Assembly (NCBI GenBank): GCA_965204755.1
Contig: OZ242011.1
Span: 256,001-320,000, forward strand
Source of the DNA: Candidatus Marinacidobacterium sp.
Lineage (GTDB): Bacteria; Acidobacteriota; Vicinamibacteria; Marinacidobacterales; Marinacidobacteraceae
Reading direction: 5' to 3'
DNA length: 64,000 nucleotides
Shown: one piece after another, positions 1-64,000 of the stretch
Position numbering within the stretch: position 1 is the stretch's first letter
Layout: every line of letters starts with the position of its first letter
Translations under genes and position numbers: made by a program
Notes under the pieces: model-generated
What the model was told of the DNA's origin: nothing
Seen by the model: the letters and a program-made list of their open reading frames with translations, nothing else
Database searches by the model: none

Positions 1-837
1 CCGGCTCTCGGTCTCGTCGAAGGGGGAGCCGGCGTGCATCGCCGAGCGATTGTCCCAGACCGCCACCCACCCCGGCCGCCACGGCTGCAGCAGCGCGAAG
101 TCCGGGCCGGTCGCGTGCTCGCGGAGTTCGGCGAGCAGCGCCCGGCCTTCCTCCGCGTCGAGCCCGCTCACCGTCTCGATGTGGCACTCGGGAATGCAGA
201 GCGCCCTCCTCCCGGTCTCCGGGTGGCGGACGACCAGCGGCCGGACCACCGGCGGGTGGGCGCGGCGGACTTCCGGGGGGAGCGGCGGGCGGTGCTCGTT
301 CGTCTCCCGCAGGCGCCGATCCAGGTAGGCGTAGGAATGGACCGCGTAGCGCCCCTCGGCGCGGCGGCGGAGCGAAGGCGGGAGCGCCTCCCAGGCCTCG
401 GCCATCCCGGCGAACCAGGTGCCGCCGCCGTCTTCCGGATGGGTGATGCAGCGGAAGATGGAGCCGGCGGGCTGGGGACAGCGGAAACTGTCGTCGGCGT
501 GCCAGAGCACGGCGTCCTCGTCGGCCCGGACGAACAGCGACCGCAGCCGACCGTCCTCGCGCAGGTTGCCCAGTCGGAGGATCTCCGGGTGTTCCGGGTG
601 GAGGAAATCCGGGTCGTACTTCTCGTTCTTCTCCAGCGGCCCGAAGACCTCGCAGAACCGGAGGAAGTCCGCCGCGGAGAGGTCCTCCTGCCCGGTGAGG
701 ACGAGGAGGCCGCCGGACGAGAGCCACCGGTCGCGGAGGGAGCGGAGTTCCTCCCCGGAGGTCTCGGCGAGGCGGACGCCGTCGAGCCGGACGCCGAACC
801 CGGACCGGGTGAGCGGCGTCGCCCGGCGCTGGGTCAC
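1..837 (-). CDS. TauD/TfdA-family Fe(II)/2-oxoglutarate dioxygenase (3' end runs off the window)
   Basis: Manual minus-strand translation from GTG at 837 (not in ORF track): WHADDSF (HxD), GGGTWFA, HPPVVRPLVVRHPETGRRAL, VAVWDNRSAMH. Confidence 0.85.
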   Translation of the reverse strand, partial: MTQRRATPLTRSGFGVRLDGVRLAETSGEELRSLRDRWLSSGGLLVLTGQEDLSAADFLRFCEVFGPLEKNEKYDPDFLHPEHPEILRLGNLREDGRLRSLFVRADEDAVLWHADDSFRCPQPAGSIFRCITHPEDGGGTWFAGMAEAWEALPPSLRRRAEGRYAVHSYAYLDRRLRETNEHRPPLPPEVRRAHPPVVRPLVVRHPETGRRALCIPECHIETVSGLDAEEGRALLAELREHATGPDFALLQPWRPGWVAVWDNRSAMHAGSPFDETESR

Positions 838-974
838 CGGGCGGCGGGCGCGAGGCGCGCGGGCGGGAAGCCGGGGGGGAGCGGGTTCCGGAGCATGCAA
901 GTGGATTCCGGGCGAATTCTACGGAGCGGCGGCGCGTCGGACGCCCTTCCCGGCCGGCGCCCCCGCGTCCTCCG

Positions 975-980
975 TAGAAT
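975..980 (+). promoter_or_regulatory. -10 box TAGAAT, 6 nt before ATG 987 (possible leaderless transcript)
   Basis: AT-rich hexamer in a very GC-rich context at canonical distance from the start codon. Confidence 0.45.
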
Positions 981-986
981 CGGGAA

Positions 987-2030
987 ATGCCTCTTCCGCC
1001 TCCGCCCGAGTCCTCCCGCCGCCCGCTTCGGAAGCGGGCGGCCCGACGCCCCCTCCCCGCGGGCACCCTGGCCGCGGGCCTCCTCGCCCTCTCCCTCGGC
1101 GCCCCGGCCGCCGCCGCGGGCGCCCAGGGACGGACGCACACCTACCGGCCGGAGCGGGGCGTGGACAGTTTCGGCGTCCGCGAACCGGTGCTCCGGCTCG
1201 CCCCCGGCGACCGGCTGGTCAGCGAGACGATGAACCCGGCATTCGTCCCGGAGGGCGGCGGACCGGCGGGCGAAGTGGGCCCGATCTTCGTCGAGGGGGC
1301 GGAGCGGGGCGACGCCCTCCTCGTCCGGGTGGAGCGGCTGGAACTGAACCGGGACCGGGCGTACTCCGGCACTTCGCGCGGGTTCGCGGCGCTCACCATG
1401 ACCCCCCAGACGCCGATGCTCCACGAACCGGTCCCCGAGCGCCGGTTCGAGTGGATCCTCGACCGGGAAGCCGGGACCGGGACGCTGGCGCTGCCGGCGA
1501 GCGGCAAGGAACCGGTCACCGTGGCGCTCGCGCCGATGCTGGGCCGGATGGCGGTCGCCCCCGACCGGGGCGAAGTCATCTGGAACGCCGCGCCGGGGAA
1601 CTTCGGCGGCAACATGGACACGCCGGAGATCCGCGAAGGCGTGGTGGTGTGGCTCCCGGTGTTCGAGCCCGGCGCCTACTTCTACTTCGGCGATGTCCAC
1701 GCGCTCCAGGGGGAGGGCGAGATCACCGGCACCGGCCTCGAGACGACCGCCGAAGTCACCTTCGGGTTCGACCTGGCGAAGGGGGAGACCATCGCCTGGC
1801 CGCGGATCGAAAGCGACGAGTACCTGATGGTGGCCGGTTCGGTGCGCCCGCTGATGGACGCCTTCCGCATCGCCCACACCGAGATCGTGCTCTGGCTGGA
1901 GCGGGACTACGGCTACGACCGCTGGGAGGCGCTGCAGTTGCTCTCCCAGGTGGGCAGCGCCCGCATCGGCAATGTGGTGGACCCGAACTACACGGTCGTC
2001 GCCCGTTTCCCCAAGCGATACCTGCGATAA
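987..2030 (+). CDS. Acetamidase/formamidase-family protein with signal peptide
   Basis: GPIFVEGAERGD, PGNFGGNMD, GDVHALQGEGEITGTGLET motifs; N-terminal hydrophobic stretch ending AGAQ. Confidence 0.85.
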   Translation: MPLPPPPESSRRPLRKRAARRPLPAGTLAAGLLALSLGAPAAAAGAQGRTHTYRPERGVDSFGVREPVLRLAPGDRLVSETMNPAFVPEGGGPAGEVGPIFVEGAERGDALLVRVERLELNRDRAYSGTSRGFAALTMTPQTPMLHEPVPERRFEWILDREAGTGTLALPASGKEPVTVALAPMLGRMAVAPDRGEVIWNAAPGNFGGNMDTPEIREGVVVWLPVFEPGAYFYFGDVHALQGEGEITGTGLETTAEVTFGFDLAKGETIAWPRIESDEYLMVAGSVRPLMDAFRIAHTEIVLWLERDYGYDRWEALQLLSQVGSARIGNVVDPNYTVVARFPKRYLR

Positions 2031-2068
2031 CGCGGGGCGGCGGCGGCGACCGTACGGGGCTGCAGGGT

Positions 2069-2866
2069 ATGGACGCCTCGGAGCGCGGGGTCTCCATCGT
2101 CGTTCCGACCTGGCGCGAAGCGGCGAACCTCGCCCCGCTCGCCGAACGGGTGTCCGCGGCGATGTCCGCCGGGTCGTCCGCCGGGTCGTCCGCCGAGTCG
2201 TCCGCCGGTCCGGTCCCCTGGGAACTGGTCTTCGTGGACGACGACTCGCAGGACGGCAGCGAGGGAATCGCGGCGGACCTGGCACGGCGCTTTCCCGTGC
2301 GCCTGGAATCCCGGCGCGAAGGGCCGCGCGACCTCTCGCTCGCCGTCCTGGAGGGGGTCCGCCTGAGCCGCTACGACCGCATCGTGGTGATGGACGCCGA
2401 CCTCTCGCACCCGCCGGAGAGCATTCCGGCGCTCCTCGCGGAACTCGAGCGCGGCGGGTGCGACCTGGTCGTGGGGAGCCGATACGCACCGGGGAGCCGC
2501 ATCGCTCCCGGCTGGAGCCGGTGGCGGCTCTTCGGGTCGCGGCTGGCGACGCGGCTCGCGCAGCCGCTCGCGCCGGTCTCGGACCCGCTGTCGGGATTCC
2601 TCGCGATGGATCGGCGTTCCCTGCCGGACCTGGGGCCGCCGCGGCCGCTCGGTTACAAGATCGGGCTGGAGTGGATGGTTCGCGGGCGGCTGAGGGTCCG
2701 CGAAGTCCCGATCGGCTTCGCCGAGCGGAACCTGGGCGCGAGCAAGATGACCTGGCGGCAGCAGGTCGCCTACCTGTCGCAGTTGCTCCGGCTCTACTTC
2801 GCGGCCTTCCGGGTCTCCGATCGGGCCGGGCGCCCTCGCGCCCGGCCGCCGGAGCCCGGACGATGA
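2069..2866 (+). CDS. Polyprenol-monophosphomannose synthase (DPM1-like GT2)
   Basis: SIVVPTWREAANL, VDDDSQDGS, VVMDADLSHPPE, VVGSRY, SDPLSGF, GYKIGLE, EVPIGFAERNLGASK; ATG at 2069. Confidence 0.88.
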   Translation: MDASERGVSIVVPTWREAANLAPLAERVSAAMSAGSSAGSSAESSAGPVPWELVFVDDDSQDGSEGIAADLARRFPVRLESRREGPRDLSLAVLEGVRLSRYDRIVVMDADLSHPPESIPALLAELERGGCDLVVGSRYAPGSRIAPGWSRWRLFGSRLATRLAQPLAPVSDPLSGFLAMDRRSLPDLGPPRPLGYKIGLEWMVRGRLRVREVPIGFAERNLGASKMTWRQQVAYLSQLLRLYFAAFRVSDRAGRPRARPPEPGR

Positions 2867-5058: not shown

Positions 5059-5186
5059 TGGAGCCGGCGACGCCCGGGATCGCCGCCGAGGCCCCGCAAA
5101 CGCCGGTAGACGCTGCTCCTTGTCAAATCCGTGATGCGATCACCGAAATGACATCGCCCCGGCCCGCGACGGCGGAACGCCCCCCG

Positions 5187-6386
5187 ATGATCGCCCGCCA
5201 CCTGACGCCGGCGCTCCGCCGCGCCGCAACCCGGAGCCCGGTCGTCCTGCTGTCCGGCGCCCGGCAGTCGGGGAAGACGACGCTGGCGCGGGCGGTCTTC
5301 CCGGAGCACCGCTACCTGCCTCTGGAGATGCCGGATGTCCTCGAAGCGGCGATCGAGGATCCGCGGACCTTCCTCGCGCAGCACGACCGGTTGCTGCTGG
5401 ACGAAGTCCAGCGGGCGCCGGCGCTCCTGTCGTACATCCAGGGTCTCGTGGACGACGACCGGACGCCCGGACGATTCGTCCTGACCGCCTCGCAGAACCT
5501 GCTCCGCATGGAGTCGGTGACGCAGACGCTCGCGGGCCGCGTCGCGCGGCTTCGCCTCGATCCGTTCTCGCTGGCGGAAATCCGCGGGCGCCCGCCACTC
5601 GACCCGAATCTCCTCGACGCCTCCGTGACCGAGGCGCCCGCTTCGGCGCCGCCCGAACGCGGCCTGTGGGAAACCCTGTTCCGGGGCTTCTACCCGCCGC
5701 TCCACGCCGGGGGCGAGGAGCCGCGCGAATGGTTCGCGGACTACACGCGCACTTATGTGGACCGGGACCTGCGCGAAGTCATGACTGTCTCGGCCCCCTA
5801 TGCGTTCTTCCACTTTCTCCCGCTGGCCGCCGGCCGCACGGGGGCCGGACTCAACCTCACCGGATTGGCCGACGACGCCGACATCACCCGGCAGACGGCG
5901 CGCCGCTGGCTCTCCGCGTTGGAGACCGGTTTCCTCGCGACCACGCTGCATCCGCACTTCCGGAACTACGGGAAGCGGCAAAGGAAACGCCCTCGCCTGC
6001 ACTTCCTCGACAGCGGTCTCCTCTGCTATCTCCTCGGGATCCGAGACGCCGACACCCTCTCCCTCCACCCGCTCCGGGGAGCGGTCTTCGAGTCGTTCGT
6101 TGCGTCCGAACTCGTCAAGGCGTTCTCCGCTCGCCGCGAGGAGCCCCTCCTCTACTTCTTCGGCGATACGACCGGACACGAAGTGGACTTCCTCGTTGAT
6201 CTCGGAGACCGAGTCGCGCCGCTGGAAGTGAAGTCGGGCGCGACCTTTGCCGGGTACGCAACCCGGCGACTCAGGCGTTGGACTTCCCTCCCCGGTAACC
6301 CGAACGAAGGCGGCGTGCTGGTTACCGGCGGCGATCGCAGTTTCGACTTCGAGGGCTGCCGCGTTCGCCCCTGGTTCCTTTCCTGA
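5187..6386 (+). CDS. AAA_14 ATPase with DUF4143 domain
   Basis: GARQSGKTT Walker A, LLDEVQ Walker B, QTLAGR, FESFVASEL, EVDFLV..PLEVK. Confidence 0.88.
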   Translation: MIARHLTPALRRAATRSPVVLLSGARQSGKTTLARAVFPEHRYLPLEMPDVLEAAIEDPRTFLAQHDRLLLDEVQRAPALLSYIQGLVDDDRTPGRFVLTASQNLLRMESVTQTLAGRVARLRLDPFSLAEIRGRPPLDPNLLDASVTEAPASAPPERGLWETLFRGFYPPLHAGGEEPREWFADYTRTYVDRDLREVMTVSAPYAFFHFLPLAAGRTGAGLNLTGLADDADITRQTARRWLSALETGFLATTLHPHFRNYGKRQRKRPRLHFLDSGLLCYLLGIRDADTLSLHPLRGAVFESFVASELVKAFSARREEPLLYFFGDTTGHEVDFLVDLGDRVAPLEVKSGATFAGYATRRLRRWTSLPGNPNEGGVLVTGGDRSFDFEGCRVRPWFLS

Positions 6387-6424
6387 ACGCCTGACGCGTG
6401 ACCGCCGTCCGTCGGCGGCGCCGG

Positions 6425-6625
6425 TCAGCGCAGGCTGGCGGAGAGGTAGAGGCCGATCCCGGCGAGCAGCGGGAGGGCGCCGAGCGTGAGGAACGAGAAC
6501 AGCGAGACCGGGTGGTTCCAGAACAGGGTGAGCGCTTCGACGGACAGCCCGAAGGCGATCAACGCCGCCGCCGCGCGGAGCCGTTTCGGCCGGCCGCCGA
6601 GCGCCGCCCGGATCCGCGAAGTCAC
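6425..6625 (-). CDS. Small two-TM membrane protein coupled to the cytochrome c operon
   Basis: GTG at 6625 overlaps TGA of upstream cytochrome; product ...AAALIAFGLSVEALTLFWNHPVSLFSFLTLGALPLLAGIGLYL. Confidence 0.65.
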   Translation of the reverse strand: MTSRIRAALGGRPKRLRAAAALIAFGLSVEALTLFWNHPVSLFSFLTLGALPLLAGIGLYLSASLR

Positions 6626-7236
6626 GACGGCCGGGCCGGCCATCGCCCGTACCGGTCGAGCGTGTCCACCTCGTGCGCCAGGTTGTGGCACATCAGGCAG
6701 GTTCTCGCGCCGCTTTCGAGGTCCCGGAGGAACGGCGCATGGGGAGGCGATTCCAGGTAGGACCGGCCGCCGCGGTGGCATTCCAGACAAGTCCCGTTCC
6801 CGAAGGGACGGTAGAGGCGCACCGGGTCGGACACGGTTCCGGTAACCGAGCGCCACACATGGAGCGCGCCGCGCATCTTGTCGTCGACACCGCCGAACAT
6901 CGTGTAGTTCGCATGGCAGGTGAAACACGCCCGCTCCGCCGGGATCCTCCCGTTCTGGACATGCGCCGCCGGGAGGAAGGCCGGGTGGTCGATCTCCAGA
7001 CTCTCCCCGTACGCCGCCATGCCGTGGCAGGAAAGGCACCAGGTCGTCGTCTGCGCCTGCTCGTAGTGCCGGGAAACCCCTCCCAGGAGCGCGAGACCCG
7101 GCAGCGCGACGAACGCCACGAAGCCGACCGCCCGCGCGCCCGGCGCGCCGGAGAGCGCCGGCCGGCGCAGCAGGACCGCGATCAATGCGACGGAAGCGGC
7201 GGCCAAGCCCGCCAGCAGGAGATCGGAACCCGCCAC
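6622..7236 (-). CDS. NapC/NirT-family membrane-anchored tetraheme cytochrome c
   Basis: Four CxxCH (CLSCH, CFTCH, CLECH, CLMCH) after two N-terminal TM helices. Confidence 0.85.
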   Translation of the reverse strand: MAGSDLLLAGLAAASVALIAVLLRRPALSGAPGARAVGFVAFVALPGLALLGGVSRHYEQAQTTTWCLSCHGMAAYGESLEIDHPAFLPAAHVQNGRIPAERACFTCHANYTMFGGVDDKMRGALHVWRSVTGTVSDPVRLYRPFGNGTCLECHRGGRSYLESPPHAPFLRDLESGARTCLMCHNLAHEVDTLDRYGRWPARPS

Positions 7237-7240
7237 CGGT

Positions 7241-7332
7241 CAGCCCGCGGAAGGGGAGCGCCGCCCCGCGGCGCCCCTCCCCGGTCGGCGCTTCGCGCCG
7301 ACAGGCGCTCCCCGGACTTCCTCCACCGGCCG
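7241..7332. mobile_element. Short degenerate copy of the 222-bp MITE/REP-like element found at 60624-61511
   Basis: 7274-7332 aligns by eye to the reverse complement of the first ~59 bp of the 222-bp unit with 6-7 mismatches; begins directly after the TGA at 7333-7335. Confidence 0.75.
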
Positions 7333-8709
7333 TCAGTGGACGCGGTCCCGCGCGGGGCTCGCGCGGCGAACACGCAGGTCCTCGGCGAGGTGGCGGATCT
7401 CGGTGAGGGACTGCACCATCTCGCTCCAGCCGTACCAGAGCGCGTAGTCCGGGTTGTTGTGGAACACCCCCTGGAAGGCGCGCATCCGGTGTTCGAGGTG
7501 CATCTTGAACAGCCGCTGTTCGATCACCGTCGGGGCGTCGTGGAAGGCGAGCAGGTCCGGGTAGTCGGAGGCGTAACCCTCCGGCCGGGTCAGCACGCCG
7601 TCCCGGTAGAGGCCGGCCACGATGCCGATCGCTTCGGCGAGCAGCCGATCCGCCTGCCGGATCATCTCGTCGCCCTTTTCGAGTTCCGCCCGCGCGAAGT
7701 TCCCGGAATGGCAGTCTTCGCAGACGGCGATCATCCGGTCGCGTTCGCGTTGCCAGTCCTCTTCGGTCAGCCGCGCCGCGTCCACCGCCCGCACCGCGTC
7801 CAGCCGGGCCGTGGGTTCCCCTTCGGGGTCGAGCACGCCGAGCGCCTTGAGGATCGCCACCCGGTCCGCCGCCCACTGTTCGTCTTCCGGCAGCGGCAGC
7901 CGCACCGCGAGGAATCCCCAGGCCGTCCGCACCCCGTGGTGGCCGTCGGGCATGTGGCAGCGCTGGCAGGTGGGCGCCGCCGCCTCTTCCGGCAGCGCGC
8001 CGGTCTGCTTCAACATATGGCGGACGCCGTGTTTCGACGAGGAATACATCTCCCACTGCGGGTGGTCGATCCCCATGTGGCAGGTGCGGCAGGCCTGCGG
8101 CTCCCGGGCTTCCCGGACCGAGAACAGGTGGCGGGTATGGCAGGAGTCGCAGGAAGCGAGGCCGAACATGACCCCCTCGGCGCGCAGGGCGCGGATCTCT
8201 TCCTCGGTCTTGAGCCCCAGTCGGTGGCACCCGCCGCAACCCTTCATCCCCTCCGTCAGCGCCATCGGCAACTGGTGCGTCGTCGGCATGGCGTTCATGC
8301 TCGCCCAGGCCAGCGCGTGCTTGCCGCCGGCGAACTGGTCGGTCTGGATGGGATGGCAGGTCCCGCAGACCTCCGGCGTCGCCGTCCCGACGAGATGCAG
8401 GTCGTCCGCGCCCCGGTGCCCGTCCCCGTGGCACATCGAGCAGTCCACGCCGTCGGCGGCGTGCCGGCTGAGTTCCCAGTCGGTGACGATGGACGGCGTC
8501 TCCGTCCGGTGGCACCCCACGCACCCCGCCGGGTCCGCCGGCGGCGGCTCGCTCGCCTGCCCGCAGCCGGCGGCCGCCCCCGCCGCGAGGCCGGCGAACA
8601 GCCCCGCTGCGAGGCCGGCGGACCGCGCGGCCCGGAGGATCACCCGGAAACCTCCCGAGAGCGAGCGCGTCCCGGTACCGGCGCGTCCCGTCTCCACGAA
8701 GACCATCAC
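7333..8709 (-). CDS. Octaheme HAO-family multiheme cytochrome c (likely lipoprotein; start uncertain)
   Basis: Eight CxxCH (CVGCH, CSMCH, CGTCH, CGGCH, CDSCH, CRTCH, CQRCH, CEDCH); CDSCHTRHLFS and CHMGIDHPQWEMY HAO-type motifs; AAAGC lipobox-like. Confidence 0.88.
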   Translation of the reverse strand: MMVFVETGRAGTGTRSLSGGFRVILRAARSAGLAAGLFAGLAAGAAAGCGQASEPPPADPAGCVGCHRTETPSIVTDWELSRHAADGVDCSMCHGDGHRGADDLHLVGTATPEVCGTCHPIQTDQFAGGKHALAWASMNAMPTTHQLPMALTEGMKGCGGCHRLGLKTEEEIRALRAEGVMFGLASCDSCHTRHLFSVREAREPQACRTCHMGIDHPQWEMYSSSKHGVRHMLKQTGALPEEAAAPTCQRCHMPDGHHGVRTAWGFLAVRLPLPEDEQWAADRVAILKALGVLDPEGEPTARLDAVRAVDAARLTEEDWQRERDRMIAVCEDCHSGNFARAELEKGDEMIRQADRLLAEAIGIVAGLYRDGVLTRPEGYASDYPDLLAFHDAPTVIEQRLFKMHLEHRMRAFQGVFHNNPDYALWYGWSEMVQSLTEIRHLAEDLRVRRASPARDRVH

Positions 8710-12064: not shown

Positions 12065-12867
12065 TCAGAGCCGCCAGATGACGAGCAACTGGACGGTGTT
12101 TTCCGTGTTCTTCGTGGAGAGTTTGTTGCCCCAGAACTGGTACTCGATCCGAGGAACAGGTTGTTTCCTTCGCCGTTCAGCGCCTTGCTCACATCCCAGG
12201 TGAGTTGCGGCTGCGTGAAGAACCACGCCTCCTGCGCGGCGCCGGCCGCGTTCGTCGTCGGGCCGGTGTATTCGGCGTGACCGGTGAACAGGAAGGTCTG
12301 GCTGCCGAGGTCGAAACTCGCCCCCCAGTTCACATCGAAGACGAACGCCGGGTCGTTCTTCGGGACGATCCCGCCGTCGGTATCGAACGCCACCATGAAG
12401 TCGGTGTTCACGAAGAAGAAGCCCGGCACATCCCAGGACGCGCGGACGCCGGGGAGCACCTTGAGGATGTCCGAATCCGTCTCCAGGTTGAAACCGCCGA
12501 TCAACTGGATGTCGCGGATCGGGCCGCCGCCGACCGTGGTCCCGGTCAACTTGGAGAGGCTCAGCGTGGGATACCACTCGCCGTAGATCGTCCGGTCGTT
12601 GAAACCGTCGCGGAGGTCGTCGCCGAGGATGTCGAGGAAGAAGAAACTCTCGCCGTGCGACCAGAACGCGGCCTGCTGGATGGTCAGGATGCGGGTGGTG
12701 GTCTCCTCGCCGGAGAACGGGTTGAGGAGGCGCCCGTACTGGAACTGGAACTCGGTCTGCGCGGCGGCGCCGACCGGGAGGGCGAGCGCGGCGGCGGCGA
12801 ACAGGAGGGCCGCCGCGCGCGGCGCGGCCCGCCTCGGGCGGGGGTCTTCGTGGGGGAACGGGGCCAT
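12065..12867 (-). pseudogene. Tsx/OmpK-like outer-membrane nucleoside channel, frameshifted near 12150
   Basis: Frame 1 gives signal peptide + QYGRLLNPF...YGEWYPTLS...FFTQPQLTWDV..LFLG; another frame gives IEYQFWGNKL...VQLLVIWRL*; CTC GG ATC lacks one base. Confidence 0.75.
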
Positions 12868-12974: not shown

Positions 12975-13936
12975 GTGGGCCCCGTCGAACTCCTCCGCTG
13001 CGCCGCCGGCGGAGTCCTCGCCGGGCTCGCCAACCTGGCGCCGGGAGTGAGCGGCGGCACCATGATCCTGGCGGTCGGGATCTACCCCCGGATCATCGCC
13101 GCCGCCGCGGAAGTGGCCGCCTTCCGGTTCCGGCGTTCCTCGCTCCTCCCGCTCGGGGCGGTGGTCGGCGGCGCGCTGTGCATGGTGGTCCTGCTGGCCG
13201 GGGCGATCCGGGACCTGTTCCTCGCCCGGCCGACGCCGCTGTTCAGCCTGTTCGCCGGGCTCACCCTCGGCGGAGCGCCGCTCCTTTGGAGGATGGCCGG
13301 GCCGGAGCGCCGTCCGATCTACTTCGTTGCCGCCGGCGCCGGCTTCCTCGCCGCCGCGCTTCCCACGCTCGCCGCGGCCGGCGCCCCGGAGGCGGGCGCC
13401 GCCGGCGTGGAGGCGTCCGCGGGAGCGCTGCTGCTCGGAGGCGCCGCCGCCGCCTTCGCGATGGTCCTGCCCGGGATCAGCGGCAGTTACCTGCTGCTCC
13501 TGCTCGGCCTCTACCTCCCCTACCTCGACGCCATGGACGGCGTCCGGGCGGCCCTCGCTTCGGGTTTCCGGCCGGCGGAACTCCTGGCCGCCGGGCTCCG
13601 CGCCGCGCCGTTCTTCGTCGGCGTCGCGCTCGGCGTCGCCGCCGCCGCCCGGCTCGTGCGACACTTCCTCACCCGTCGGCGGCAGCCGACCCTCGGGCTC
13701 CTGCTCGGGTTGCTCCTCGGCGCGGTAGTCGGGCTCTGGCCCTTCCGTTCGGCGAGCGGCCTCCGCTTCGACCCGGACGGCGGTGACCTCGCCGCCGCCG
13801 GGGCGTTCACCGCCCTCGGTTTCGCGCTCGCTTGGGCCCTCGGACGGCTGCAGCCGGAGAACGCGCCGCCCGACCGGGACCATTCCCCCCGCATTCCCGA
13901 CCGCCCGAACGGCGGAGAAAGGCCCCGCACCCCTTC

Positions 13937-13940: not shown

Positions 13941-15427
<1,487 letters not shown>

Positions 15428-34830: not shown

Positions 34831-37464
34831 TCAGGCCGCTCCCCGGTCGGCGGCCGGCGGGGAGAGGCGGGCCAACTGCCGTCCCAGCCGGGTCCAGAGC
34901 CAGGGCGTCCGGCGGACGGAGAGGTCGAGCAGGTAGGCGACCAGCGCCAGCAGCGCCAGCAGCGGCCAGAGGTCCCGGGAGCGGACCACCCGGTCGCCGC
35001 CGGCGGCGAGCACTTCGCCGATGGTCGGCGCCACCGAGCCGCCGGTCTCCTCCGCCAGCGCGGCCAGCGCTTCGTCGGCGGGTGGGAGGAAGCGGTACTC
35101 GTCGGGGTAACTCAGGTGGATGGCGCGCTCCAGCGGAGGGCCGTTCGCGTCGGCGAGCAGCCCCGCCGGGAGGCTCTCCTCCAGCACGCGGAAGCGCGCC
35201 GCGCCGCCCGGCTCCAGGTCGAGCGGCGCCTCGGCCGCGAACCGGCCGGGGCCGGTCTGGCGCATCGGCGCCCGGGCCACCCGCCCGGACGAGTCGCGGA
35301 CTTCGAGTTCCGGCGCCACTCCGGTCGGGAACGCGCCGTCCTCCCCGATCAGGGAGAGGCGCGCCTCGGCGGCGCCGCCGGCGCGGACGACCTCGAAGTC
35401 GAGTTCCGGCCCGGCCCCGCGCCGCATGGCGTCGCGGACGACCTGCGTCCAGAACCGGCCGTACCCCTCCCAACCGATCCAGTCCGCCGCCCAGCGGTTC
35501 TTGCAGTCGGAAGCGAACAGCGCGGCGCGGCCGAGCCCGTATTGCCACCGCGCCAGCAGCGGCTCCTCTTCCGGACCCTCGAGCAGGACTTCCGCGGTGT
35601 CCTTGGCCATCGTGGCGACGAAACCCTTGAGTTCCGGCGCCTGCTCGAAGTCGAGCCCGTCGAGCACCCGGGCCTGTTGGCGCACCAGCGGACGGAACGG
35701 CTCTTCGACCAAAGTCGCGTCCAGCGCGATCTGGGTCTCCTCGACGAAGATCTGCTGCACCCGGGCGGCGTCCCGGATGAAGTAACTGCGGCCCTCGCCC
35801 CAGTCCGCGATGTCCGACAGCAGTTCCCGGTCGGCTTCCTCGCCCACCGCCACCGTCGAGATCGTGATCTCGTCCTCCTGCATCCGGCCGACCAACTCCT
35901 CGTAGTCGTCCGGATAGGTCTTGCCGTCGGAGAGCAGGATCACATGCTTGACCTTCGACGGGCTCTCGTTCAGTTGCTCGTAGGCCCGGTCGAGCGCCGG
36001 GTAGATGTTCGTCTGCGCGCTGGCCTGGATGCGGCTGATCCCTTCCTTGATCCAGTCCCGGTCGGCGACGACCTGGAGCGGGATGGTGGTGTACGGATTC
36101 CAGTCGAAGGTGACCACGCCGAAGCGGTGGGTGTCTTCGAGCAGGTCGAGCGCCGCCTTGGTCGCTTCCTTGGCGAGGGCGATCTTGCGTCCGTACATGC
36201 TGTAGGACTTGTCGAGCACGATGACCAGCGAGAGGTCCTTCCACTTCTCCTCGATGCGGAAGTCCACCGGGAGCGCCTCCTCGAGGACGGATTCGGAGTA
36301 CCCGTCCTCGCCGTAACTCGATTCGCCGGCGGCGAAGACCAGCCCGCCGCCGTCGTCGCGCACATAGCGGGCGATCCGGCCCATCGTCCGCTCGGGGATC
36401 TCGGTCGGGGGGATGTCGCTGAGCACCACCGCGTCCCAACGTTCGAGGTCGAGGAAGGCGAGCGCCGCCGGCGGGGCGGTCTCCACTTCGACCCCGCCCT
36501 CTTCGAGCGCCGCCCGGAGGTAGCGGGCGCTCTCCGGCTGCCCTTCCACATAGAGCACGCTCGCCGGCGCGGCGATCGGCGCCTCGACCGCGCGCCGGTC
36601 GTTGAGGGGCAGCCGGTCTCCCGCGACTTCGACTTCCGCTTCGAGGAGCGCCATCCCCGGCTCCTCGATCCGCACCGGCACCGGCACGGTGGAAACGCCC
36701 GGCGGGAGGGCCACGGAGATCCGCGTCAGCGGCTCGCCGGCGCGCAGCAGGCGGATGTTCGCCGGCCCGCCGGCCGCCGAGTGGACCTCGACTTCGACCC
36801 CCACCATCTCGCCGGCGCGGGCGCCGGGAGGCACCTCGATCCGGTTCACGGAGGCGCCGCCGTCGCTGCGGACGGCCGAGGGCGCGGGAAAGACCCGGAC
36901 GCCCGAGTCCCGGAGCAGCGAGAGCGCCCGGCCGAGGTCGCCGTCGGTCGCCCGGCCGTCGCTGAACAGGACCAGCCGCTTCAGCCGGTCCGGCGGGAAC
37001 CGGGAGGCGGCGTGGCGGAGCGCCGCCTCGATGTCGGTGCGCCCCTGGTCGAGCGCGCCCGGCGGCGCCCGGCCCGGCGTGGATCCGCTGTCGAACACCC
37101 GGACGCCGAGCAGGTCGGAAGCGCCGTCCACGGAGACCGGGCGGTCGGCGAAGGCGATGAAGTGGGCGTTCTCCGGGCCGAGCGTCCGGCCGGCCTCCTC
37201 CGCCCAGGCCACCGCCTCCCGAAGGGATTCCGGCGCCACGCTCCGGGACACATCGAGCAGGAAGGCCACGGAGACTTCGCCGGCGCCGGCCCGCACCACC
37301 GGGCGGCAGAGCGCGAAGAGCAGCAACCCGACCGCGGCCGCCCGCAGGACGAGCGAGGCCCGGAGCCGGGGCTTCGGCCACCGGAGCCCGGAGCGGAGCC
37401 CCACCCACAACACCACCCCGAGGAGGGGAAGGAGCAGGAGCGGCCAGGACGCCTGGAAGGCCAT
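34831..37464 (-). CDS. Membrane protein with two VWA domains and a GATase1-like domain
   Basis: BatA-like N-terminal TM; LLDVSRSV and VLDKSYSM MIDAS, LFSDG/LLSDG; PLLARWQYGLGR; C-terminal TM. Confidence 0.85.
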   Translation of the reverse strand: MAFQASWPLLLLPLLGVVLWVGLRSGLRWPKPRLRASLVLRAAAVGLLLFALCRPVVRAGAGEVSVAFLLDVSRSVAPESLREAVAWAEEAGRTLGPENAHFIAFADRPVSVDGASDLLGVRVFDSGSTPGRAPPGALDQGRTDIEAALRHAASRFPPDRLKRLVLFSDGRATDGDLGRALSLLRDSGVRVFPAPSAVRSDGGASVNRIEVPPGARAGEMVGVEVEVHSAAGGPANIRLLRAGEPLTRISVALPPGVSTVPVPVRIEEPGMALLEAEVEVAGDRLPLNDRRAVEAPIAAPASVLYVEGQPESARYLRAALEEGGVEVETAPPAALAFLDLERWDAVVLSDIPPTEIPERTMGRIARYVRDDGGGLVFAAGESSYGEDGYSESVLEEALPVDFRIEEKWKDLSLVIVLDKSYSMYGRKIALAKEATKAALDLLEDTHRFGVVTFDWNPYTTIPLQVVADRDWIKEGISRIQASAQTNIYPALDRAYEQLNESPSKVKHVILLSDGKTYPDDYEELVGRMQEDEITISTVAVGEEADRELLSDIADWGEGRSYFIRDAARVQQIFVEETQIALDATLVEEPFRPLVRQQARVLDGLDFEQAPELKGFVATMAKDTAEVLLEGPEEEPLLARWQYGLGRAALFASDCKNRWAADWIGWEGYGRFWTQVVRDAMRRGAGPELDFEVVRAGGAAEARLSLIGEDGAFPTGVAPELEVRDSSGRVARAPMRQTGPGRFAAEAPLDLEPGGAARFRVLEESLPAGLLADANGPPLERAIHLSYPDEYRFLPPADEALAALAEETGGSVAPTIGEVLAAGGDRVVRSRDLWPLLALLALVAYLLDLSVRRTPWLWTRLGRQLARLSPPAADRGAA

Positions 37465-48617: not shown

Positions 48618-49847
48618 TCAGGGCAGGCGCAGCACCACGATCCGGTTGGTGTTGGTTCCGGAGCGGTTGTTCTCGACGCCCCAGGTGTTGGAGGTCTTGG
48701 TGAACTCCTGTTCGTTCACGACGAAACAGACGAGGGCCCAAGCGCTGTCGCGCGCCACCTCCGCCACGACCCGATCCAGCAGCAACGAACCCTTGCGGAC
48801 TTCGCCGACCTCGAAGGCGAAGACGCTGCCGCTTTCCGAGATCGCCGCCACATTGTCGAGCGCGGCGCGCACCAGCGCTTTCCATTCGTCGAGTTTCCCG
48901 GTCTGGGTGATCCCGACGCGGGCCGGTTCGATACCGGCGAACCAGCAGCGCATCCAGTTGTCCGCGCGGTAGTTCACGATGTCCAGGAACGGCGGCGAAG
49001 TCACCGCCAGCCGCACCGGCGGGCCGTCGTAGCGGAACGGTTGGAGAACGGACTGTCCGAAGAAACCGCGGGAAGTCCCCGAAGGCGCCCGCAACGGAAG
49101 GTCGCGCAGCAGGGAGCGGGTCTTCCGCAGGATGAGCGCGGGGACTTCCCGATACTCCGGCGCCTGTCCCAACCGCTCGTTGTTCTTCCGTTGCCGTTCC
49201 AGGGACGCCGCCTGGTTCGGGGGCAGCGTATAGACCGAGAAGAACCCCCTGGAGTGGCCGGTCAACCGGTTGAGCGCCACCATCCGGATCCAGCGATCGA
49301 CCGCGTCTTCCGATCCGTCCGCGCGGCGCGCGGCGAGGTAGCCGCGTAACCGGCAGATCTCGTTCAGGGTCTCCGGGTGGAAGAAGACCCGGAGGTCCTC
49401 CGGGCAGTCCGCGGGTTCGTCCAGCGCGAGCGCCGCCAGCCGCGCCTCGACGGCTTCCGGGGGCGGCGGGTCGAGACGCGGTTCGATCATCAGCCGGGCG
49501 AGCGGATTCACATCGTTGCCCAGGGTGTCCCGTCCGGAAAGCGACGCTTCGAGCAAGGTGGTGCCGCGCCCCATGAACGGGTCGAACACCAGGTCGCCCG
49601 GCGCGGTCAACCGGCGGATGAAGAACGCCGGCAGTTGCGGCTTGAAGCAGGCGCGGTAGGAGACTTCGTGGAGGGAATGCCCCGCCCGCTGTTTCGCCGT
49701 CCAGTATTCGTTGGCGAATACCGGAGCGCCGCCGTACTCGGAAACGGCGGTCGGTTTCCCGAAACGACGCCATCCTTCGAGTTCGCCGAGGAACTCGTCG
49801 GGCGCGCGCCGCCTCTCCGTCTCGAAGAGCGGCGCTACCGCGGCCAC
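48618..49847 (-). CDS. Orphan amino (N4-C/N6-A) DNA methyltransferase
   Basis: SAM-binding FDPFMGRGTT precedes catalytic VTSPPF; no adjacent endonuclease. Confidence 0.82.
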   Translation of the reverse strand: MAAVAPLFETERRRAPDEFLGELEGWRRFGKPTAVSEYGGAPVFANEYWTAKQRAGHSLHEVSYRACFKPQLPAFFIRRLTAPGDLVFDPFMGRGTTLLEASLSGRDTLGNDVNPLARLMIEPRLDPPPPEAVEARLAALALDEPADCPEDLRVFFHPETLNEICRLRGYLAARRADGSEDAVDRWIRMVALNRLTGHSRGFFSVYTLPPNQAASLERQRKNNERLGQAPEYREVPALILRKTRSLLRDLPLRAPSGTSRGFFGQSVLQPFRYDGPPVRLAVTSPPFLDIVNYRADNWMRCWFAGIEPARVGITQTGKLDEWKALVRAALDNVAAISESGSVFAFEVGEVRKGSLLLDRVVAEVARDSAWALVCFVVNEQEFTKTSNTWGVENNRSGTNTNRIVVLRLP

Positions 49848-58796: not shown

Positions 58797-60620
58797 TCAA
58801 ACCACGCGCTGACGGATGAGGGCGACGCACTCCTCCGGGGACCGCGCCGCCGTGTCCAGGCGGATGTCGGGACTCTCCGGCGGTTCGTAGGCGCTCCCGA
58901 CGCCGGTGAAGTTCTTCAACTCGCCGCTCCGGGCCCGCGCGTAGAGCCCCTTCGGGTCGCGCTCCTCGCAGGTTTCGAGCGGCGCGTCCACGAAGATCTC
59001 GAGGAAACTCCCCGGGGCGAACAACTCCCGGGCCAGGGCCCGCTCCGCGCGGTAGGGACTGATGAAGGAGACGATGACGATCAGGCCGGCGTCCACCATC
59101 AGGCGCGCCACTTCGGCGACCCGGCGGATGTTCTCCACGCGGTCCGCCTCGGTGAAACCCAGGTCGCGGTTCAGCCCCAGCCGCACATTGTCCCCGTCCA
59201 GCACATAGGTATGGCGGCCCTCCGCGGCGAGCCGCTTCTCCAGCAGGTTGGCGATCGTGGACTTCCCCGCGCCGGAGAGCCCGGTGAGCCAGAGACACCG
59301 CGGCTGCTGCGACAGCGCGGCGGCCCGCGTCTCCCGGGTGACTTCGAAGTCCTGCCGACGGACGCTGGCCGACCGCATCAGCGGGAAGCGGATCATGCCG
59401 GCGCCCAGCGTCGCGCGGGTAACCCGGTCCGTCAGGATGAAACCGCCGAGGGTCCGGCTCTGTTCGTACCGGGCGTAGGGAAGCGGCCGGTCGGTGACCA
59501 GGTTCACGGCGCCGATGTCGTTGAGCGCGAGCGTCGGCGCCGGGCGGGTTCGACCGTCGGTCACATCCAGCCGGTGCCGGATCCGCGTCACCGCGGCCCC
59601 GGTTTCCATCGTATGGATCTTCAACCGGTACGGGCGACCGACGACCAGCGGCTCGTCCCCCATCCAGAGCAACTCCGCCCGGAACTGCTCCGCGGTGTCC
59701 ACCGGGCGGTCCGCGGCCGCGATCACATCGCCGCGGCCCGCATCCACCTCGTCCTTGAGCGTGAGCGTGACGGACTCCCCTTCCCCGGCGCGCGGCAGGG
59801 CGCCCCGGAAGACGACCACTTCGTCCACTTCGGTTTCGATACCAGAAGGCGCGACCGCGACCCGGTCGCCGGGCGCGACCGAACCGGAGGCGACGCGCCC
59901 CTGGTACCCGCGAAACCCCTCGCTCGGACGGTTCACATACTGGACCGGCATCCGGAACGGCGCTTCGCCGGAGGAGGACTCGACCTCCACCGTCTCGAGG
60001 TGGTCGAGCAGGGTCGGGCCCGAGTACCAGTTCCCCGACTCGCCGCGAACGGTCAGGTTCTCGCCGCTGACCGCCGAGACCGGAATCAACGCCGGCTCGG
60101 CCACGCCGATCCCTTCGGCGAGGGCCCGGTAGTCCCGGCCGATCTCCTCGAACCGGGTCCGGCTCCAGTCCACCAGGTCCATCTTGTTCACCGCGGCCAC
60201 CAGGAAGCGGACGCCGAACATGGCCGCGATCCGGGTATGCCGGGCGGTTTGGGGAAGGACTCCCTTCCGCGCGTCGAGGAGCACGACCGCCAGGTCGGAG
60301 ACCGAGGCCCCGGTCGCCATGTTCCGGGTGTACTGCTCGTGGCCGGGGGCGTCGGCGACGAAGAACTGCCGGCGCGGGGTCTCGAACCGGCGGTAGGCCA
60401 CATCGATGGTGATCCCCTGTTCCCGCTCGGCGGCGAGGCCGTCCATGAGCAGCGCCAGGTCGGCTTCGGCGCCGCGCGTGCCGAAACGTTTCGAGGCGCG
60501 CTCCACCGCGCCGAACTCGTCCTCGAAGACCGCGCGGCAGTCGTGGAGCAGCCGGCCGATGAGGCTGCTCTTGCCGTCGTCCACGCTGCCGCAGAGGACC
60601 AGGCGGAGCGGGGGGAGCAC
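58797..60620 (-). CDS. cysNC: Bifunctional sulfate adenylyltransferase subunit 1 / adenylylsulfate kinase
   Basis: [39 protein letters not shown]; then [24 protein letters not shown]. Confidence 0.93.
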
Positions 60621-60623
60621 TAG

Positions 60624-61511
60624 CAACCGGTGGACAAAGTCCGGGGAGGGCCCGTCGGCGCGAAGCGACGACCGGGGAGGGGTGCGGGGAGGGGGTGTCC
60701 CCCTCCCTGCGATAGACGGCGGAGGGAATCGCGCAGCGATTCGCGCCGCCTGCCCGTGGAGAGAGCGCCCCGCCGGGAAACGCGGCGGGGAATTCGCATC
60801 CTCCGGTCGAAGGGCGGAGGGCGGGGCGCTTTCTCCACGGGATGTCAGCCGGTGGACAAAGTCCGGGGACGGCCCGTCGGCGCGAAGCGACGACCGGGGA
60901 GGGGTGCGGGGAGGGGGTGTCCCCCTCCCCGCGATAGACGGCGGAGGGAATCGCGCAGCGATTCGCGCCGCCTGCCCGTGGAGAGAGCGCCCCGCCGGGA
61001 AACGCGGCGGGGACTTCGCATCCTCCGGTCGAAGGGCGGAGGGCGGGGCGCTTTCTCCACGGGATGTCAGCCGGTGGACAAAGTCCGGGGAGGGCCCGTC
61101 GGCGCGAAGCGACGACCGGGGAGGGGTGCGGGGAGGGGGTGTCCCCCTCCCCGCGATAGACGGCGGAGGGAATCGCGCAGCGATTCGCGCCGCCTGCCCG
61201 TGGAGAGAGCGCCCCGCCGGGAAACGCGGCGGGGACTTCGCATCCTCCGGTCGAAGGGCGGAGGGCGGGGCGCTTTCTCCACGGGATGTCAGCCGGTGGA
61301 CAAAGTCCGGGGACGGCCCGTCGGCGCGAAGCGACGACCGGGGAGGGGTGCGGGGAGGGGGTGTCCCCCTCCCCGCGATAGACGGCGGAGGGAATCGCGC
61401 AGCGATTCGCGCCGCCTGCCCGTGGAGAGAGCGCCCCGCCGGGAAACGCGGCGGGGACTTCGCATCCTCCGGTCGAAGGGCGGAGGGCGGGGCGCTTTCT
61501 CCACGGGCAGT
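60624..61511. mobile_element. Tandem array of four 222-bp hairpin-rich MITE/REP-like units
   Basis: Unit starts 60624, 60846, 61068, 61290; imperfect terminal IRs (cagccggtggacaaag / ctttctccacgggcag); flanked by CTAG and TTAA; no transposase. Confidence 0.85.
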
Positions 61512-62461
61512 TAAAAATACCCCTCGCGTTTCTTGCGCTCCATCGAGCCGTCGCCGTCGTGGTCGATCAGGCGGCCCTCCCGTTCCGACCGGTTCGCCCG
61601 CAGCGTCTCTTCGAGGATGGCCGGGATCGTGGCCGCGCCGCTCTCCGTCGCCGCGGTGAGCGGCCAGCATCCCAGCGTCCGGAAGCGCACGCGGCGGGGT
61701 TTCGTTTCCTCTCCCGGAAGGAACCGCATCCGCTCGCGGTCGTCCACCACGAGCAGCCGGCCGTCGCGCTCCACCACCGGACGCTCCTTCGCGAAGTAGA
61801 GCGGAACCACGGGTATGTCCTCTTCGGCGAGGTAACGCCAGACATCGCCCTCGGTCCAGTTGGACAGCGGCGAGACGCGCAGCGATTCCCCGGGCTGGAA
61901 CCGGGTGTTGTAGAGGTTCCACAACTCCGGGCGCTGTTTCCGGGGCTCCCACCGGTGGGCGGCGTTCCGCAGGGAGAAGACGCGCTCCTTGGCGCGCGAC
62001 CGCTCCTCGTCCCGCCGGGCGCCGCCGAAGATGATGTCGTACCGGCCGGCGTCGAGCGCCTGGCGGAGGGCCTGCGTCTTCATGACATCCGTGTAGTGCT
62101 CCGAACCGTCGTCGAAGGGGTTCACGCCGGCCGCGCGTCCTTCCTCGTTGGTGTGGACCCGGAGTTCCACTTCGACTTCCGCCGCGATCCGGTCGCGGAA
62201 CGCGATCATCTCCCGGAACTTCCACCCGGTATCGATGTGGAGCAGCGGGAACGGCGGCGGCGCCGGCCAGAAGGCCTTCCGCGCCAGGTGCAGCATCACC
62301 GCGGAGTCCTTGCCGATGGAGTAGAGCATCACCGGCCGCTCCGCCGTCGCGGCGCCCTCGCGCAGGATCTCGATCGCCTCCGACTCGAGGCCCGCCAGCG
62401 ACGGCGCCGGGTTCCGGCCCTCCGGCCCCGGGCGCGACTCGCCGCCCGACCCGGCCGTCAC
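61511..62461 (-). CDS. cysD: Sulfate adenylyltransferase subunit 2
   Basis: [55 protein letters not shown]. Confidence 0.95.
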
Positions 62462-63558
62462 GCCGGGACCCGGTTGTCGTAGCCGAGCAGTTCCTGCCCC
62501 GGCGCGCAGGCCTCCGCCAGCCGGGCGTGCTCGCCGGGGGCGAGGCGCAGCCGGCTCGGCGGCCGCTTCCGGGGCATCGCGGCCACCTCGCGGAGCCACC
62601 CTTCGTCCACGAACTCTTCCCCGACGAACTCGATGAACCGGCGCATTTCCTCCAGGGGCGACTCCACCGCCGTCTCGAACCGCATGGAGAGCACCCGCTC
62701 CGGCGGCAACTCCCCGAGATAGCGGACCCCCTGCTCGATCATGCCGCTCCAGAACCGCCCGAACGCCTCCAGCGGGAACCGGATCCGGTCGTAGAGCCGG
62801 CGGGAGAACAGGCGGAACCGCACGCGTTCGAAGGCGGGCAGCCACGGACTCGTCCCCACCCAGTTGTTCGGGTGGAAGGGGTCGAGCCCCAACTTGCGCA
62901 TCAGCCAGGCGGCCTGGACGCGGACGCGGAAGAAGTGGTGTCCCTGCATGGACATCGCCGTGTCGCGGCCGTCCCGGTAGATATGGACGAAGCGGGCGTC
63001 GGGAAAGAGCCGCGCCAGCGTGGGAACGAACAGGAGGGACGCGCCCGAGCGCTCGATCCAGGCGCGTTTCCCGAACCGCCGCGCCAGCCATTCGAAGACG
63101 AAGCGGTAGTGGTTTCCCAGGGAATCCTCGCCGCGGCTGCGCACCACCGGGGCGAACTCGTCCCACAGCCGTTCGTGGTCGTCGGTCAGGTGCGGCAGGG
63201 TGACGCACAGGATCGGGGGCACTTCCTCCGGCCGGTACCGGGCGCCCTCGCCGAGCGGGTAGAGGAACTCGTCGATGATGAGGTCGTTCTTCATGAGCGC
63301 CCGGCCGGCCGGCGGCAGGACGCCGAGCCGCCGGTACACCTGTTCGCCGGTCAACCGGTCGCCCCGGAGCGCCGAACTCGACATCACCGGCCAGAACTCG
63401 GAGAGGCTCAGCAGGTCGGGGTGCCGCCGCACCATGTTGGAGAGCATGGTGGAGCCGCATCGTCCGGTGCTCACGATGAACACCGGGGCGGCGGCGGGCC
63501 CGGGCCCGCCCTCCGCCTCCGGGGCGGCCGCCGCCGGGGGAGCGGAAGCCGCGTTCAC
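62458..63558 (-). CDS. PAPS-dependent sulfotransferase (Sulfotransfer_3-like)
   Basis: [14 protein letters not shown] (5'-PSB), [14 protein letters not shown] (3'-PB), RFE, LLGY; GTGA overlaps on both sides. Confidence 0.85.
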
Positions 63559-64000
63559 CACGGGCTCGCCTCCCGAGCCTCCACCCGGTCGGGCAGGCGG
63601 TAACTGAGGTCGGGGATCGAGGAAGCGTCGAGCAGGAAGACGAAGTTGCTGCCCCGCCAACGGGAGGCGAGGGAGGGGGACAGGCGGTGGAGGGCGGCGT
63701 GGGCGGACCTCTTCCACCGGAGCCAGGCCAGCAGGCCCAGCGTGGGCTTCTTGGGGAACCCGAGCCGGTCCGATACCTCGCGTCCGAGCAGGGCGCGCGA
63801 AACCTGGTAGGCGTTTTCGACGAACGCCTTCTTCTCCTTGGGATCGGTCATCCGCGCCACTTCGGGGAGCGCCCGGACCAGGGCGTTCGCGATCACCGCC
63901 GACTCTTCGCCGGGGGGCGGCTCGAGCAGGGTCGCGATCCGGTGCAGTTCGTTCGTCTTCGCCTCGTCACCTTCGAACAGGAGTTCTTCGGGCGTGCCGA
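63555..64000 (-). CDS. MpaB/DUF2236 (Lcp-like) oxygenase family protein, C-terminal part only
   Basis: G.PEELL...EPPP..ES..IANAL...SRALLG.EV.D.LGFP pattern typical of this family's C-terminus; 5' end outside window. Confidence 0.55.

Follow-up and report, generated by a model that had tools for sequence, protein, structure and literature searches.

Why is a 64-kb stretch of G+C-rich bacterial DNA almost devoid of two four-base palindromes, and does the answer lie in the stretch itself or in the genome that carries it? The stretch, referred to below as the window, comprises 64,000 nucleotides (73% G+C) of Candidatus Marinacidobacterium sp. (genome G000), and corresponds to bases 256,001-320,000 of a genome assembled as a single contig of 3,975,858 bp. 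Relative to a second-order Markov expectation the word AGCT is missing altogether (0 observed, 112 expected) and ACGT is found twice (95 expected), while the comparison palindromes TCGA, GATC, GTAC and CATG occur 503, 346, 97 and 123 times, respectively. The initial annotation, made by reading the letters, had reported no AGCT, a single ACGT and an abundance of the other four palindromes; the absence of AGCT, the ACGT at 60486-60489 and the abundance of the other words are real, and the ACGT at 36439-36442 had been overlooked. It had also described the avoidance as extending into toxin-antitoxin modules, and no toxin-antitoxin family was found among the 45 window open reading frames (ORFs) of 55 or more amino acids that were compared with Pfam; since the window holds two sites in all, any region within it is free of AGCT and nearly free of ACGT. 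The window features that bear on the avoidance are the following, with hyphens marking codon boundaries here and below.

1..64000, no strand: the entire window, with no AGCT and almost no ACGT, a typical sample of the genome-wide depletion.
36439..36442, no strand: residual ACGT, GAA-CGT, within a VWA-domain gene (34831-37464, minus strand).
60486..60489, no strand: residual ACGT, AAA-CGT, within a sulfate adenylyltransferase/APS kinase gene (58797-62225, minus strand).
15191..15214, plus strand: AGT TTC GTG ATG AGT TCC AGT TTC in the S-adenosylhomocysteine hydrolase gene, where serine before T is AGT and not AGC.

When synonymous codons were permuted gene by gene in 30 ORFs of the window (48.6 kb, 300 shuffles), 95.1 ± 6.8 copies of AGCT were expected (lowest shuffle 76) and none was observed, and 82.4 ± 5.6 copies of ACGT were expected (lowest shuffle 67) against the two observed. 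The avoidance therefore survives a codon-preserving shuffle, the comparison proposed in the initial annotation, whose examples of escape codons, the AGT codons at 15191-15214 and the AGT TAC near 13485 and 16086, are indeed in frame.

The loss is a property of the genome and not of the window. Over the complete contig 332 AGCT were observed for 7,446 expected (observed-to-expected ratio, O/E, 0.045) and 265 ACGT for 7,147 expected (O/E 0.037), both under the second-order Markov model, so that about 14,000 sites are missing when the two words are taken together. Among the 256 tetramers these are the two lowest, followed by CTAG at 0.13, with all others above 0.28; the three lowest are all palindromes. 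Codon counts were taken from 1,830 ORFs selected by a simple rule based on G+C content at third codon positions (GC3) and covering 67% of the genome; in these ORFs (2.65 Mb, 20 codon shuffles) AGCT was found 115 times for 6,086 expected and ACGT 110 times for 4,880 expected. The depletion is limited to the exact palindromes: NGCT and NCGT in general are unaffected, and the non-palindromic near neighbors of the two words are not depleted, the O/E of TGCT/AGCA being 2.0. It is found outside genes as well, as 633 short intergenic gaps (85 kb) include 14 AGCT for 122 expected and 4 ACGT for 120 expected; the O/E of CTAG in the same gaps is only 0.52. As background, 72 high-GC loci, each 10 kb or longer, from other phyla showed O/E values of 0.32-1.48 for AGCT (median 1.17) and 0.70-1.39 for ACGT (median 1.06).

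The way in which genes escape the two words follows the genetic code. Serine before T is encoded by AGC in 0.4% of the cases (22-28% before other bases) and by AGT in 21.1% (1-6% elsewhere), and threonine before T by ACG in 0.6% (28-57% elsewhere), with ACC at 72%, ACT at 24% and ACA at 3.9%. The codons for Asn, Asp, His and Tyr that precede valine are xAC in 1.3-1.8% of the cases versus 84-93% elsewhere, and xAT in 98-99%. For Glu, Gln and Lys before leucine the combination xAG-CTN accounts for 0.5-1.3%, xAA-CTN for 64-72% and xAG-TTR for 25-34%; leucine following xAG is TTG in 1,944 cases and CTN in 55, the CTC-type leucine codons being all preceded by xAA. All three reading frames are affected, with O/E values of 0.012-0.106 under the codon shuffle. 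Because the shuffle has a wide spread over all word-frame cells (first percentile 0.09), the claim for the third frame rests on odds ratios from a 2x2 test, which are 0.13 for NNA-GCT and 0.11 for NNA-CGT as compared with 0.92-2.24 for the controls A-GGT, A-GTT, A-CCT, A-ACT, A-TCT and A-CTT. In this frame both deamination products alter the amino acid, and the depletion is still 8- to 9-fold. The two residual ACGT of the window are both in the frame NNA-CGT, where the genome depletion is about 9-fold rather than about 50-fold. A separate codon bias was also seen: T-ending codons are favored before T or TC relative to the codon shuffle (GCT-T 2.7 times, GGT-T 2.6 times, xCT-TCx 5.0 times, xxT-TCG 3.2 times), to an extent that exceeds what escape from AGCT and ACGT explains.

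The effect reaches the protein level. In the G000 proteome Asp-Val is the most depleted of all dipeptides (O/E 0.50), and His-Val (0.52), Asn-Val (0.62) and Tyr-Val (0.67) are also low, as compared with 0.85-1.05 for the same four dipeptides in the non-avoiding genomes of the family (18 samples, 73,368 residues in total). Lys-Leu is at 0.74 versus 1.13 in non-avoiders and Glu-Leu at 0.75 versus 0.87, and in a second genome of the genus, G001, Asp-Val falls to 0.36. The depletion of the valine dipeptides is likely due to the fact that the sole synonymous escape from xAC-GTx is xAT, which is disfavored in a GC-rich genome.

To what extent is the avoidance shared? Stretches of 20 kb were sampled from 38 of 40 genomes of relatives (all except G033 and G027), and G001 was the sole genome in this first sampling to have lost both words. 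A 440-kb sample of G001 showed O/E values of 0.093 for AGCT and 0.121 for ACGT, with the same codon signature as G000; the two genomes have about 81-87% DNA identity in one syntenic block, and their Lhr proteins are 79% identical. Two other members of the family have lost ACGT and have AGCT near expectation: G005 (92 kb), with O/E 0.15 for ACGT (18 of 124 expected) and 0.81 for AGCT, and G007 (100 kb from an assembly of 410 contigs), with 0.17 (26 of 151 expected) and 0.91. The 34 other sampled relatives within the order were mostly near expectation for both words, the lowest values among them being those of AGCT in G014 (29 of 59 expected) and G024 (35 of 69 expected). The depletion of CTAG is family-wide. 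The avoidance, common to the two genomes of the genus that were sampled, is old. A tree of the Lhr protein (20 rows, 820 columns) left the backbone of the family unresolved, and is compatible with one or several gains of ACGT avoidance among the genera g1, g5 and g7. Contigs 98.2-98.8% like the window were found in sequencing runs labelled as sponge or marine metagenomes, from three studies besides a possible source, run X13.

The sites that remain are unevenly distributed. Out of 597 residual sites in the genome, 367 fall in 49 clusters that total 146 kb and are mostly 58-66% G+C, and 225 are located within ordinary ORFs. One 5.6-kb cluster, with 25 AGCT and 6 ACGT, lies over the only rRNA operon found (16S, two tRNAs, 23S and 5S). 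The O/E values are 0.016-0.037 in windows with at least 68% G+C and 0.18-0.39 in those below 64%; low-GC DNA, which was probably acquired, is thus less purged and still depleted. The G001 sample includes 140 residual sites, 68 of which could be aligned to G000, and only 6 of these 68 are also sites in G000, so that, as judged from the aligned sequences, residual sites are transient. The G000 counterparts of the 38 aligned G001 AGCT sites are most often AGTT (10) and AACT (5), and those of the 30 aligned ACGT sites most often ACAT (8) and ATGT (6); transitions of the central cytosine are the largest single class of difference (29 of 68).

Of the residual AGCT, 69 are found in nine paired intergenic repeat arrays with an AT-rich 12-mer core present in 100 copies, of which 69 end in AGCT and 22 in AGGT. 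The nine loci are at 357894, 756031, 1207950, 1659955, 2045499, 2895447, 2970772, 3119130 and 3494175 of contig C1 of G000, and each consists of two arrays in the same orientation, with 9-14 copies of the 12-mer spaced by about 20 bp, around a GC-rich spacer some 200 bp long. Several of them adjoin a shared GC-rich sequence. No such array was found in the 476 kb of G001 that were searched; the arrays may serve for protein binding or form the ends of a small mobile element.

AluI cuts AGCT, and MaeII and HpyCH4IV cut ACGT. That prokaryotic genomes avoid Type II restriction sites was reportedly described by Gelfand and Koonin in 1997 and by Rocha and coworkers in 2001. As the explanation for the loss of the two words we favor, with a probability of about 0.7, long and continuing selection at the DNA level against the sites that resident restriction-modification (R-M) systems would recognize; the nucleases that would act as the selective agent, and the genes encoding them, are ones that we infer. 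Long-term selection had been suggested in the initial annotation, and the exact-word specificity, the intergenic loss (14 of 122 and 4 of 120), the third-frame odds ratios (0.13 and 0.11) and the sharing of the trait with G001 all speak for it. Some 7,000 copies of a given four-base site would be expected in such a genome, and each copy would need to be methylated after every replication and would bring the danger of self-cleavage; were the mark 5-methylcytosine, each copy would also be a mutation hot spot. We propose that mutations that destroy a site would be favored because every copy carries this risk. Within genes they would be fixed mainly as synonymous changes, from AGC-T to AGT-T, from xAC-GTx to xAT-GTx, from xAG-CTN to xAA-CTN or xAG-TTG, and from ACG-T to ACC-T or ACT-T. 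Where the sole synonymous escape is a disfavored codon, part of the change would take place at the amino acid level, which could be why the Asp-, His-, Asn- and Tyr-Val dipeptides are about halved.

The R-M repertoire of G000 is large. Methyltransferase matches comprise 6 to PF00145, 26 to PF01555 and 14 to PF02384, some of them weak or partial (41 ORFs tabulated), and the corresponding figures in G001 are 3, 33 and 12. Genes for Vsr repair endonucleases accompany four of the six C5 methyltransferases of G000. Other palindromes are avoided too, with O/E values of 0.20 for GTCGAC (0.18 in G001), 0.14 for CTATAG, 0.48 for GCATGC and 0.50 for CTCGAG. The C5 methyltransferase (PF00145) at 2,393,071 adjoins a full-length match to the BbrUII/HgiDII restriction-enzyme family, the sole locus that matched the NCBIfam model NF050001 (351 bits, below the equivalog cut-off of 550), and M.HgiDII recognizes GTCGAC (PMC5867850). 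This locus and the O/E of 0.20 for GTCGAC were used as an internal calibration, and the two are consistent.

Two loci track the avoidance of AGCT and ACGT among relatives. Both are outside the window and are given in genome coordinates:

about 1,259,155-1,263,828: cassette A (AGCT candidate), C5 methyltransferase, PDC-M33A (GHKL ATPase), PDC-M33B and DUF6339.
about 1,516,107-1,521,781: cassette B (ACGT candidate), 627-amino-acid GHKL protein, 345-amino-acid protein, 726-amino-acid C5 methyltransferase and a Vsr-like gene.

In cassette A the C5 methyltransferase at 1,262,827 (gene at 1,262,788-1,263,828, minus strand) is followed downstream by the adjacent genes for PDC-M33A (E 8e-93) and PDC-M33B (E 2.5e-40); gene order and chromosomal context are conserved in G001, with identities of 72%, 57%, 54% and 76%. 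Order-level tallies were made over 55 genomes, with G033 counted as a non-match, and PDC-M33A matched in two of them, G000 and G001, which are the two AGCT avoiders. The 627-amino-acid protein matched in four, G000, G005 (55% identity), G007 (53%) and G001 (26%), which are the four ACGT avoiders; cassette B, whose C5 methyltransferase gene is at 1,518,891-1,521,071 on the plus strand, has kept its gene order in G005 in a different chromosomal context, with identities of 50%, 44% and 62%. Bergerat ATPase motifs are visible in the alignments of both large proteins, PDC-M33A and the 627-amino-acid protein, and the two cassettes are at best remotely related to each other. That each cassette causes the loss of its own word is a tentative proposal that we derive from sequence comparisons and regard as possible. 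The fuller model, in which both cassettes would be ATP-dependent GHKL-type 5-methylcytosine restriction systems, PDC-M33 acting on AGCT and the 627-amino-acid/345-amino-acid/methyltransferase/Vsr set on ACGT, with their self-toxicity driving the near-complete loss of sites, is somewhat more doubtful.

Several results weigh against selection by resident systems or against these candidates. The argument does not account for the size of the effect, as R-M systems normally protect the sites of their host and a 25- to 50-fold depletion is left unexplained; an EcoRII-like system is encoded in the genome, yet the O/E of CCWGG is 0.94, so that a resident system can be present without avoidance. Homology predicts no enzyme in G000 that recognizes AGCT or ACGT, and the G001 match to the 627-amino-acid protein is merely 26% identical. 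The co-occurrence of cassettes and trait is not phylogenetically independent and may reflect one or two events, because both are restricted to a small number of deep branches in a single family with an unresolved backbone. Phylum scans (401 genomes each) detected cassette homologs at 30-46% identity in G312, G403, G435 and G203, where neither word is avoided (O/E 0.91-1.13). The structural model of PDC-M33B (pLDDT 85.8) showed no nuclease fold and had no Foldseek match at E <= 0.001; the best VIA-align hit (Z 8.0) is a generic beta-sandwich, with the C-terminal helical half barely covered, and among 71 homologs in the protein database none is named and none has a Pfam domain. Cross-phylum support for the cassettes was sought as well; the search with alignment A1 led only to G005, and the distant carriers are non-avoiding and give no independent support.

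The best surviving alternative is pure mutational erosion, also raised in the initial annotation, by which deamination of 5-methylcytosine would destroy AGCT and ACGT faster than they are formed, with no selection on the words. Six C5-methyltransferase genes are encoded, ATGT/ACAT, the products of deamination, stand at 1.65 times expectation, AGT-T replaces AGC-T one-for-one, and AGTT/AACT and ACAT/ATGT are the most frequent G000 counterparts at the residual sites of G001, all of which are as erosion predicts. On the other hand, the frame in which both products are non-synonymous is depleted 8- to 9-fold (0.13 and 0.11 versus 0.92-2.24), and the non-synonymous products are not enriched there (odds ratios of 0.92 for A-GTT and 1.12 for A-ACT) or among dipeptides (Asp-Ile 0.96, Asp-Met 0.60). 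Threonine leaves ACG-T for ACC (72%) and ACT (24%) and only in 3.9% of the cases for the deamination product ACA, and Vsr, which repairs exactly such damage, accompanies four of the six C5 methyltransferases. Replacement by deamination products thus holds where they are the sole synonymous route (xAT-GTx, AGT-T) and fails for threonine, although the equilibrium could mask the original path. We consider erosion insufficient by itself, as shown by the threonine pattern and the Vsr genes, and improbable as the full explanation; deamination may supply many of the site-destroying mutations and probably feeds the process, and, because the patterns are long-term equilibria, the data are compatible with its being the main source of mutation. 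Very-short-patch repair was rejected as a cause since Vsr restores the methylated word and only the exact palindromes, not NGCT or NCGT, are depleted.

Another possibility mentioned in the initial annotation was that self is told from non-self by the absence of sites, with an unprotected nuclease or DNA-modifying toxin attacking AGCT and ACGT and the genome having shed them. The near-total purge in core DNA (O/E 0.016-0.037) is in agreement with such a mechanism, as is the effect on protein sequence, expected were each site very costly, and AGCT was lost from pandoraviruses in which, according to bioRxiv 10.1101/712018, no methylase was found. An unpaired four-base cutter would, however, fragment the chromosome at the 597 sites that persist, including the 31 of the rRNA-operon cluster, the 69 AGCT of the arrays and the 225 in ordinary ORFs, and both cassettes that track the trait include a C5 methyltransferase; we therefore find this explanation quite improbable and do not adopt it.

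Selection at the level of RNA or translation, for instance by an endoribonuclease toxin that cuts AGCU and ACGU or through a codon-pair effect, is very unlikely. Most of the genome is transcribed and the words are palindromic, so that strand symmetry cannot separate selection on DNA from selection on RNA; nevertheless, short intergenic gaps are as strongly depleted, all three frames are affected, and the top three depleted tetramers are palindromes, a signature of dimeric DNA-binding enzymes, with six-base palindromes of the GTCGAC type avoided too.

Least probable of all is an artefact of assembly or base calling, in which methylated sites would be systematically miscalled and lost from the consensus: G000 and G001 were each assembled into one contig, as long reads would suggest, and miscalled 5-methylcytosine would yield AGTT/AACT and ATGT/ACAT, but in all frames the replacements respect the genetic code (ACG-T to ACC or ACT; xAG-CTC to xAA-CTC and never to a Phe codon, with Glu-Phe 0.90, Gln-Phe 1.07 and Lys-Phe 0.84), neither Val nor Thr is in excess after NNA, and neither are Asp-Ile (0.96) and Asp-Met (0.60) among dipeptides, the 410-contig assembly G007 has the same loss of ACGT (26 of 151), contigs of run X13 differ from 19.7 kb of the window by no substitution and by one 1-base insertion at 12148 that is common to all four runs, and the 40 listed differences from the contigs of the three other studies, which are 98.2-98.8% alike, include not one that creates a site. 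Run X13 may be the source sample of the assembly. The absence of site-creating strain differences, 0 among the 40 listed (there are 533 further ones) versus 1.2 expected, given that 2.9% of the possible substitutions would create one, has no statistical power.

Selection against the sites of resident R-M systems would make this genome an extreme instance of the already established phenomenon of restriction-site avoidance. According to Rusinov et al. 2015 (BMC Genomics 16:1084, PMC4687349), sites are avoided in roughly half of the 1,774 cases of orthodox Type II systems, avoidance is commoner for long-resident systems, and lost systems leave traces. The present case shares with those the under-representation of short palindromes relative to composition and its lineage specificity, and differs in that two four-base words are at 2-4% of expectation and dipeptides are affected, and in that the candidates are GHKL-ATPase cassettes instead of the 'orthodox' pairs whose sites that study found to be avoided. 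The nearest match in magnitude is the loss of AGCT from pandoraviruses of the A clade (bioRxiv 10.1101/712018, Poirot et al. 2019), itself unexplained, which is also genome-wide and clade-specific with non-directed replacements. Those are eukaryotic giant viruses with normal ACGT numbers (5,822-6,165 copies) and no methylase or nuclease candidate, whereas here a bacterium has lost both words and has about 40 ORFs with methyltransferase domain matches as well as candidate cassettes.

GHKL (MORC/paraMORC) ATPases have been placed in R-M systems by Iyer, Abhiman and Aravind 2008 (PMC2292703), and the arrangement they describe, a C5 methyltransferase adjoining a protein with Bergerat ATPase motifs, often together with Vsr, is found at five loci of G000. 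The BbrUII/HgiDII family (NF050001) differs in being represented by one locus only, below the cut-off, and cassettes A and B are only remotely alike. Both marker proteins of PDC-M33 (PADLOC-DB v2) are present in G000 and adjacent, with their order conserved in G001; PADLOC lists this system as a candidate with no description, and the link to AGCT is new here and, deduced as it is from sequence, a candidate one. The defense-rich sponge symbionts of PMC5099237 and PMC5649159 offer a parallel, given the window-like contigs in sponge and marine runs and the many R-M genes and ankyrin repeats of G000, with the difference that site avoidance is not mentioned in the accessible parts of those two articles. 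Searches of the open-access literature yielded no report of a bacterial genome in which both AGCT and ACGT are so depleted, although the supplementary tables of Rusinov et al. may list comparable values, nor any report of site avoidance that shifts dipeptide composition.

The genome shows how far avoidance can go in a cellular organism: two four-base words are down 25- to 50-fold, a strong GC3 preference is overridden to the point that 98.5% of the Asn, Asp, His and Tyr codons before Val end in T, and half of the expected Asp-Val dipeptides have been removed. It also points to a comparative route to enzyme specificity, by which two methyltransferase/GHKL cassettes, one of them PDC-M33, could gain assignments in an uncultured lineage, and carries a practical warning, since models of codon usage, codon pairs and k-mer binning will misbehave on such genomes. 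If the cassettes are the cause, function and specificity would be provided for PDC-M33, an uncharacterized defense candidate; about 14,000 positions would then have been rewritten, and this would be, as far as searches of open-access text show, the first case in which site avoidance measurably reshaped amino acid sequence.

Two further deficits, in the non-palindromic GTAGAC/GTCTAC (O/E 0.18) and in GGWCC (0.63), are genome-wide and are possible footprints of further systems. Two dense defense islands were noted. The one at about 2,383,000-2,403,000 includes the C5 methyltransferase with the BbrUII/HgiDII-family enzyme, GmrSD and an N4/N6 methyltransferase, and the one at about 2,897,000-2,917,000 includes a restriction endonuclease of the BPTD_3080 family (1,229 bits), a 995-amino-acid methyltransferase, a GHKL/histidine-kinase-like protein, a C5 methyltransferase, a Vsr fusion and a RelA/SpoT-domain protein.

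The window itself has a methyltransferase gene:

48618..49847, minus strand: orphan Type II DNA methyltransferase lacking a nuclease neighbor (PADLOC MTase_II PDLC03325, E 1.4e-143, full length).

It has a partial Pfam PF01555 match in addition to the PADLOC match and is flanked by aldehyde dehydrogenase and kynureninase genes. Homologs at 53-75% identity are carried by 18 of 24 family genomes; as these homologs (E <= 1e-80) occur in non-avoiders too, the gene was discarded as the cause of the avoidance, and it is a candidate regulatory methylase. Elsewhere in the window, at 6622-8709 on the minus strand, a NapC/NirT-type gene adjoins a gene for a multi-haem cytochrome c, both ordinary respiratory equipment.

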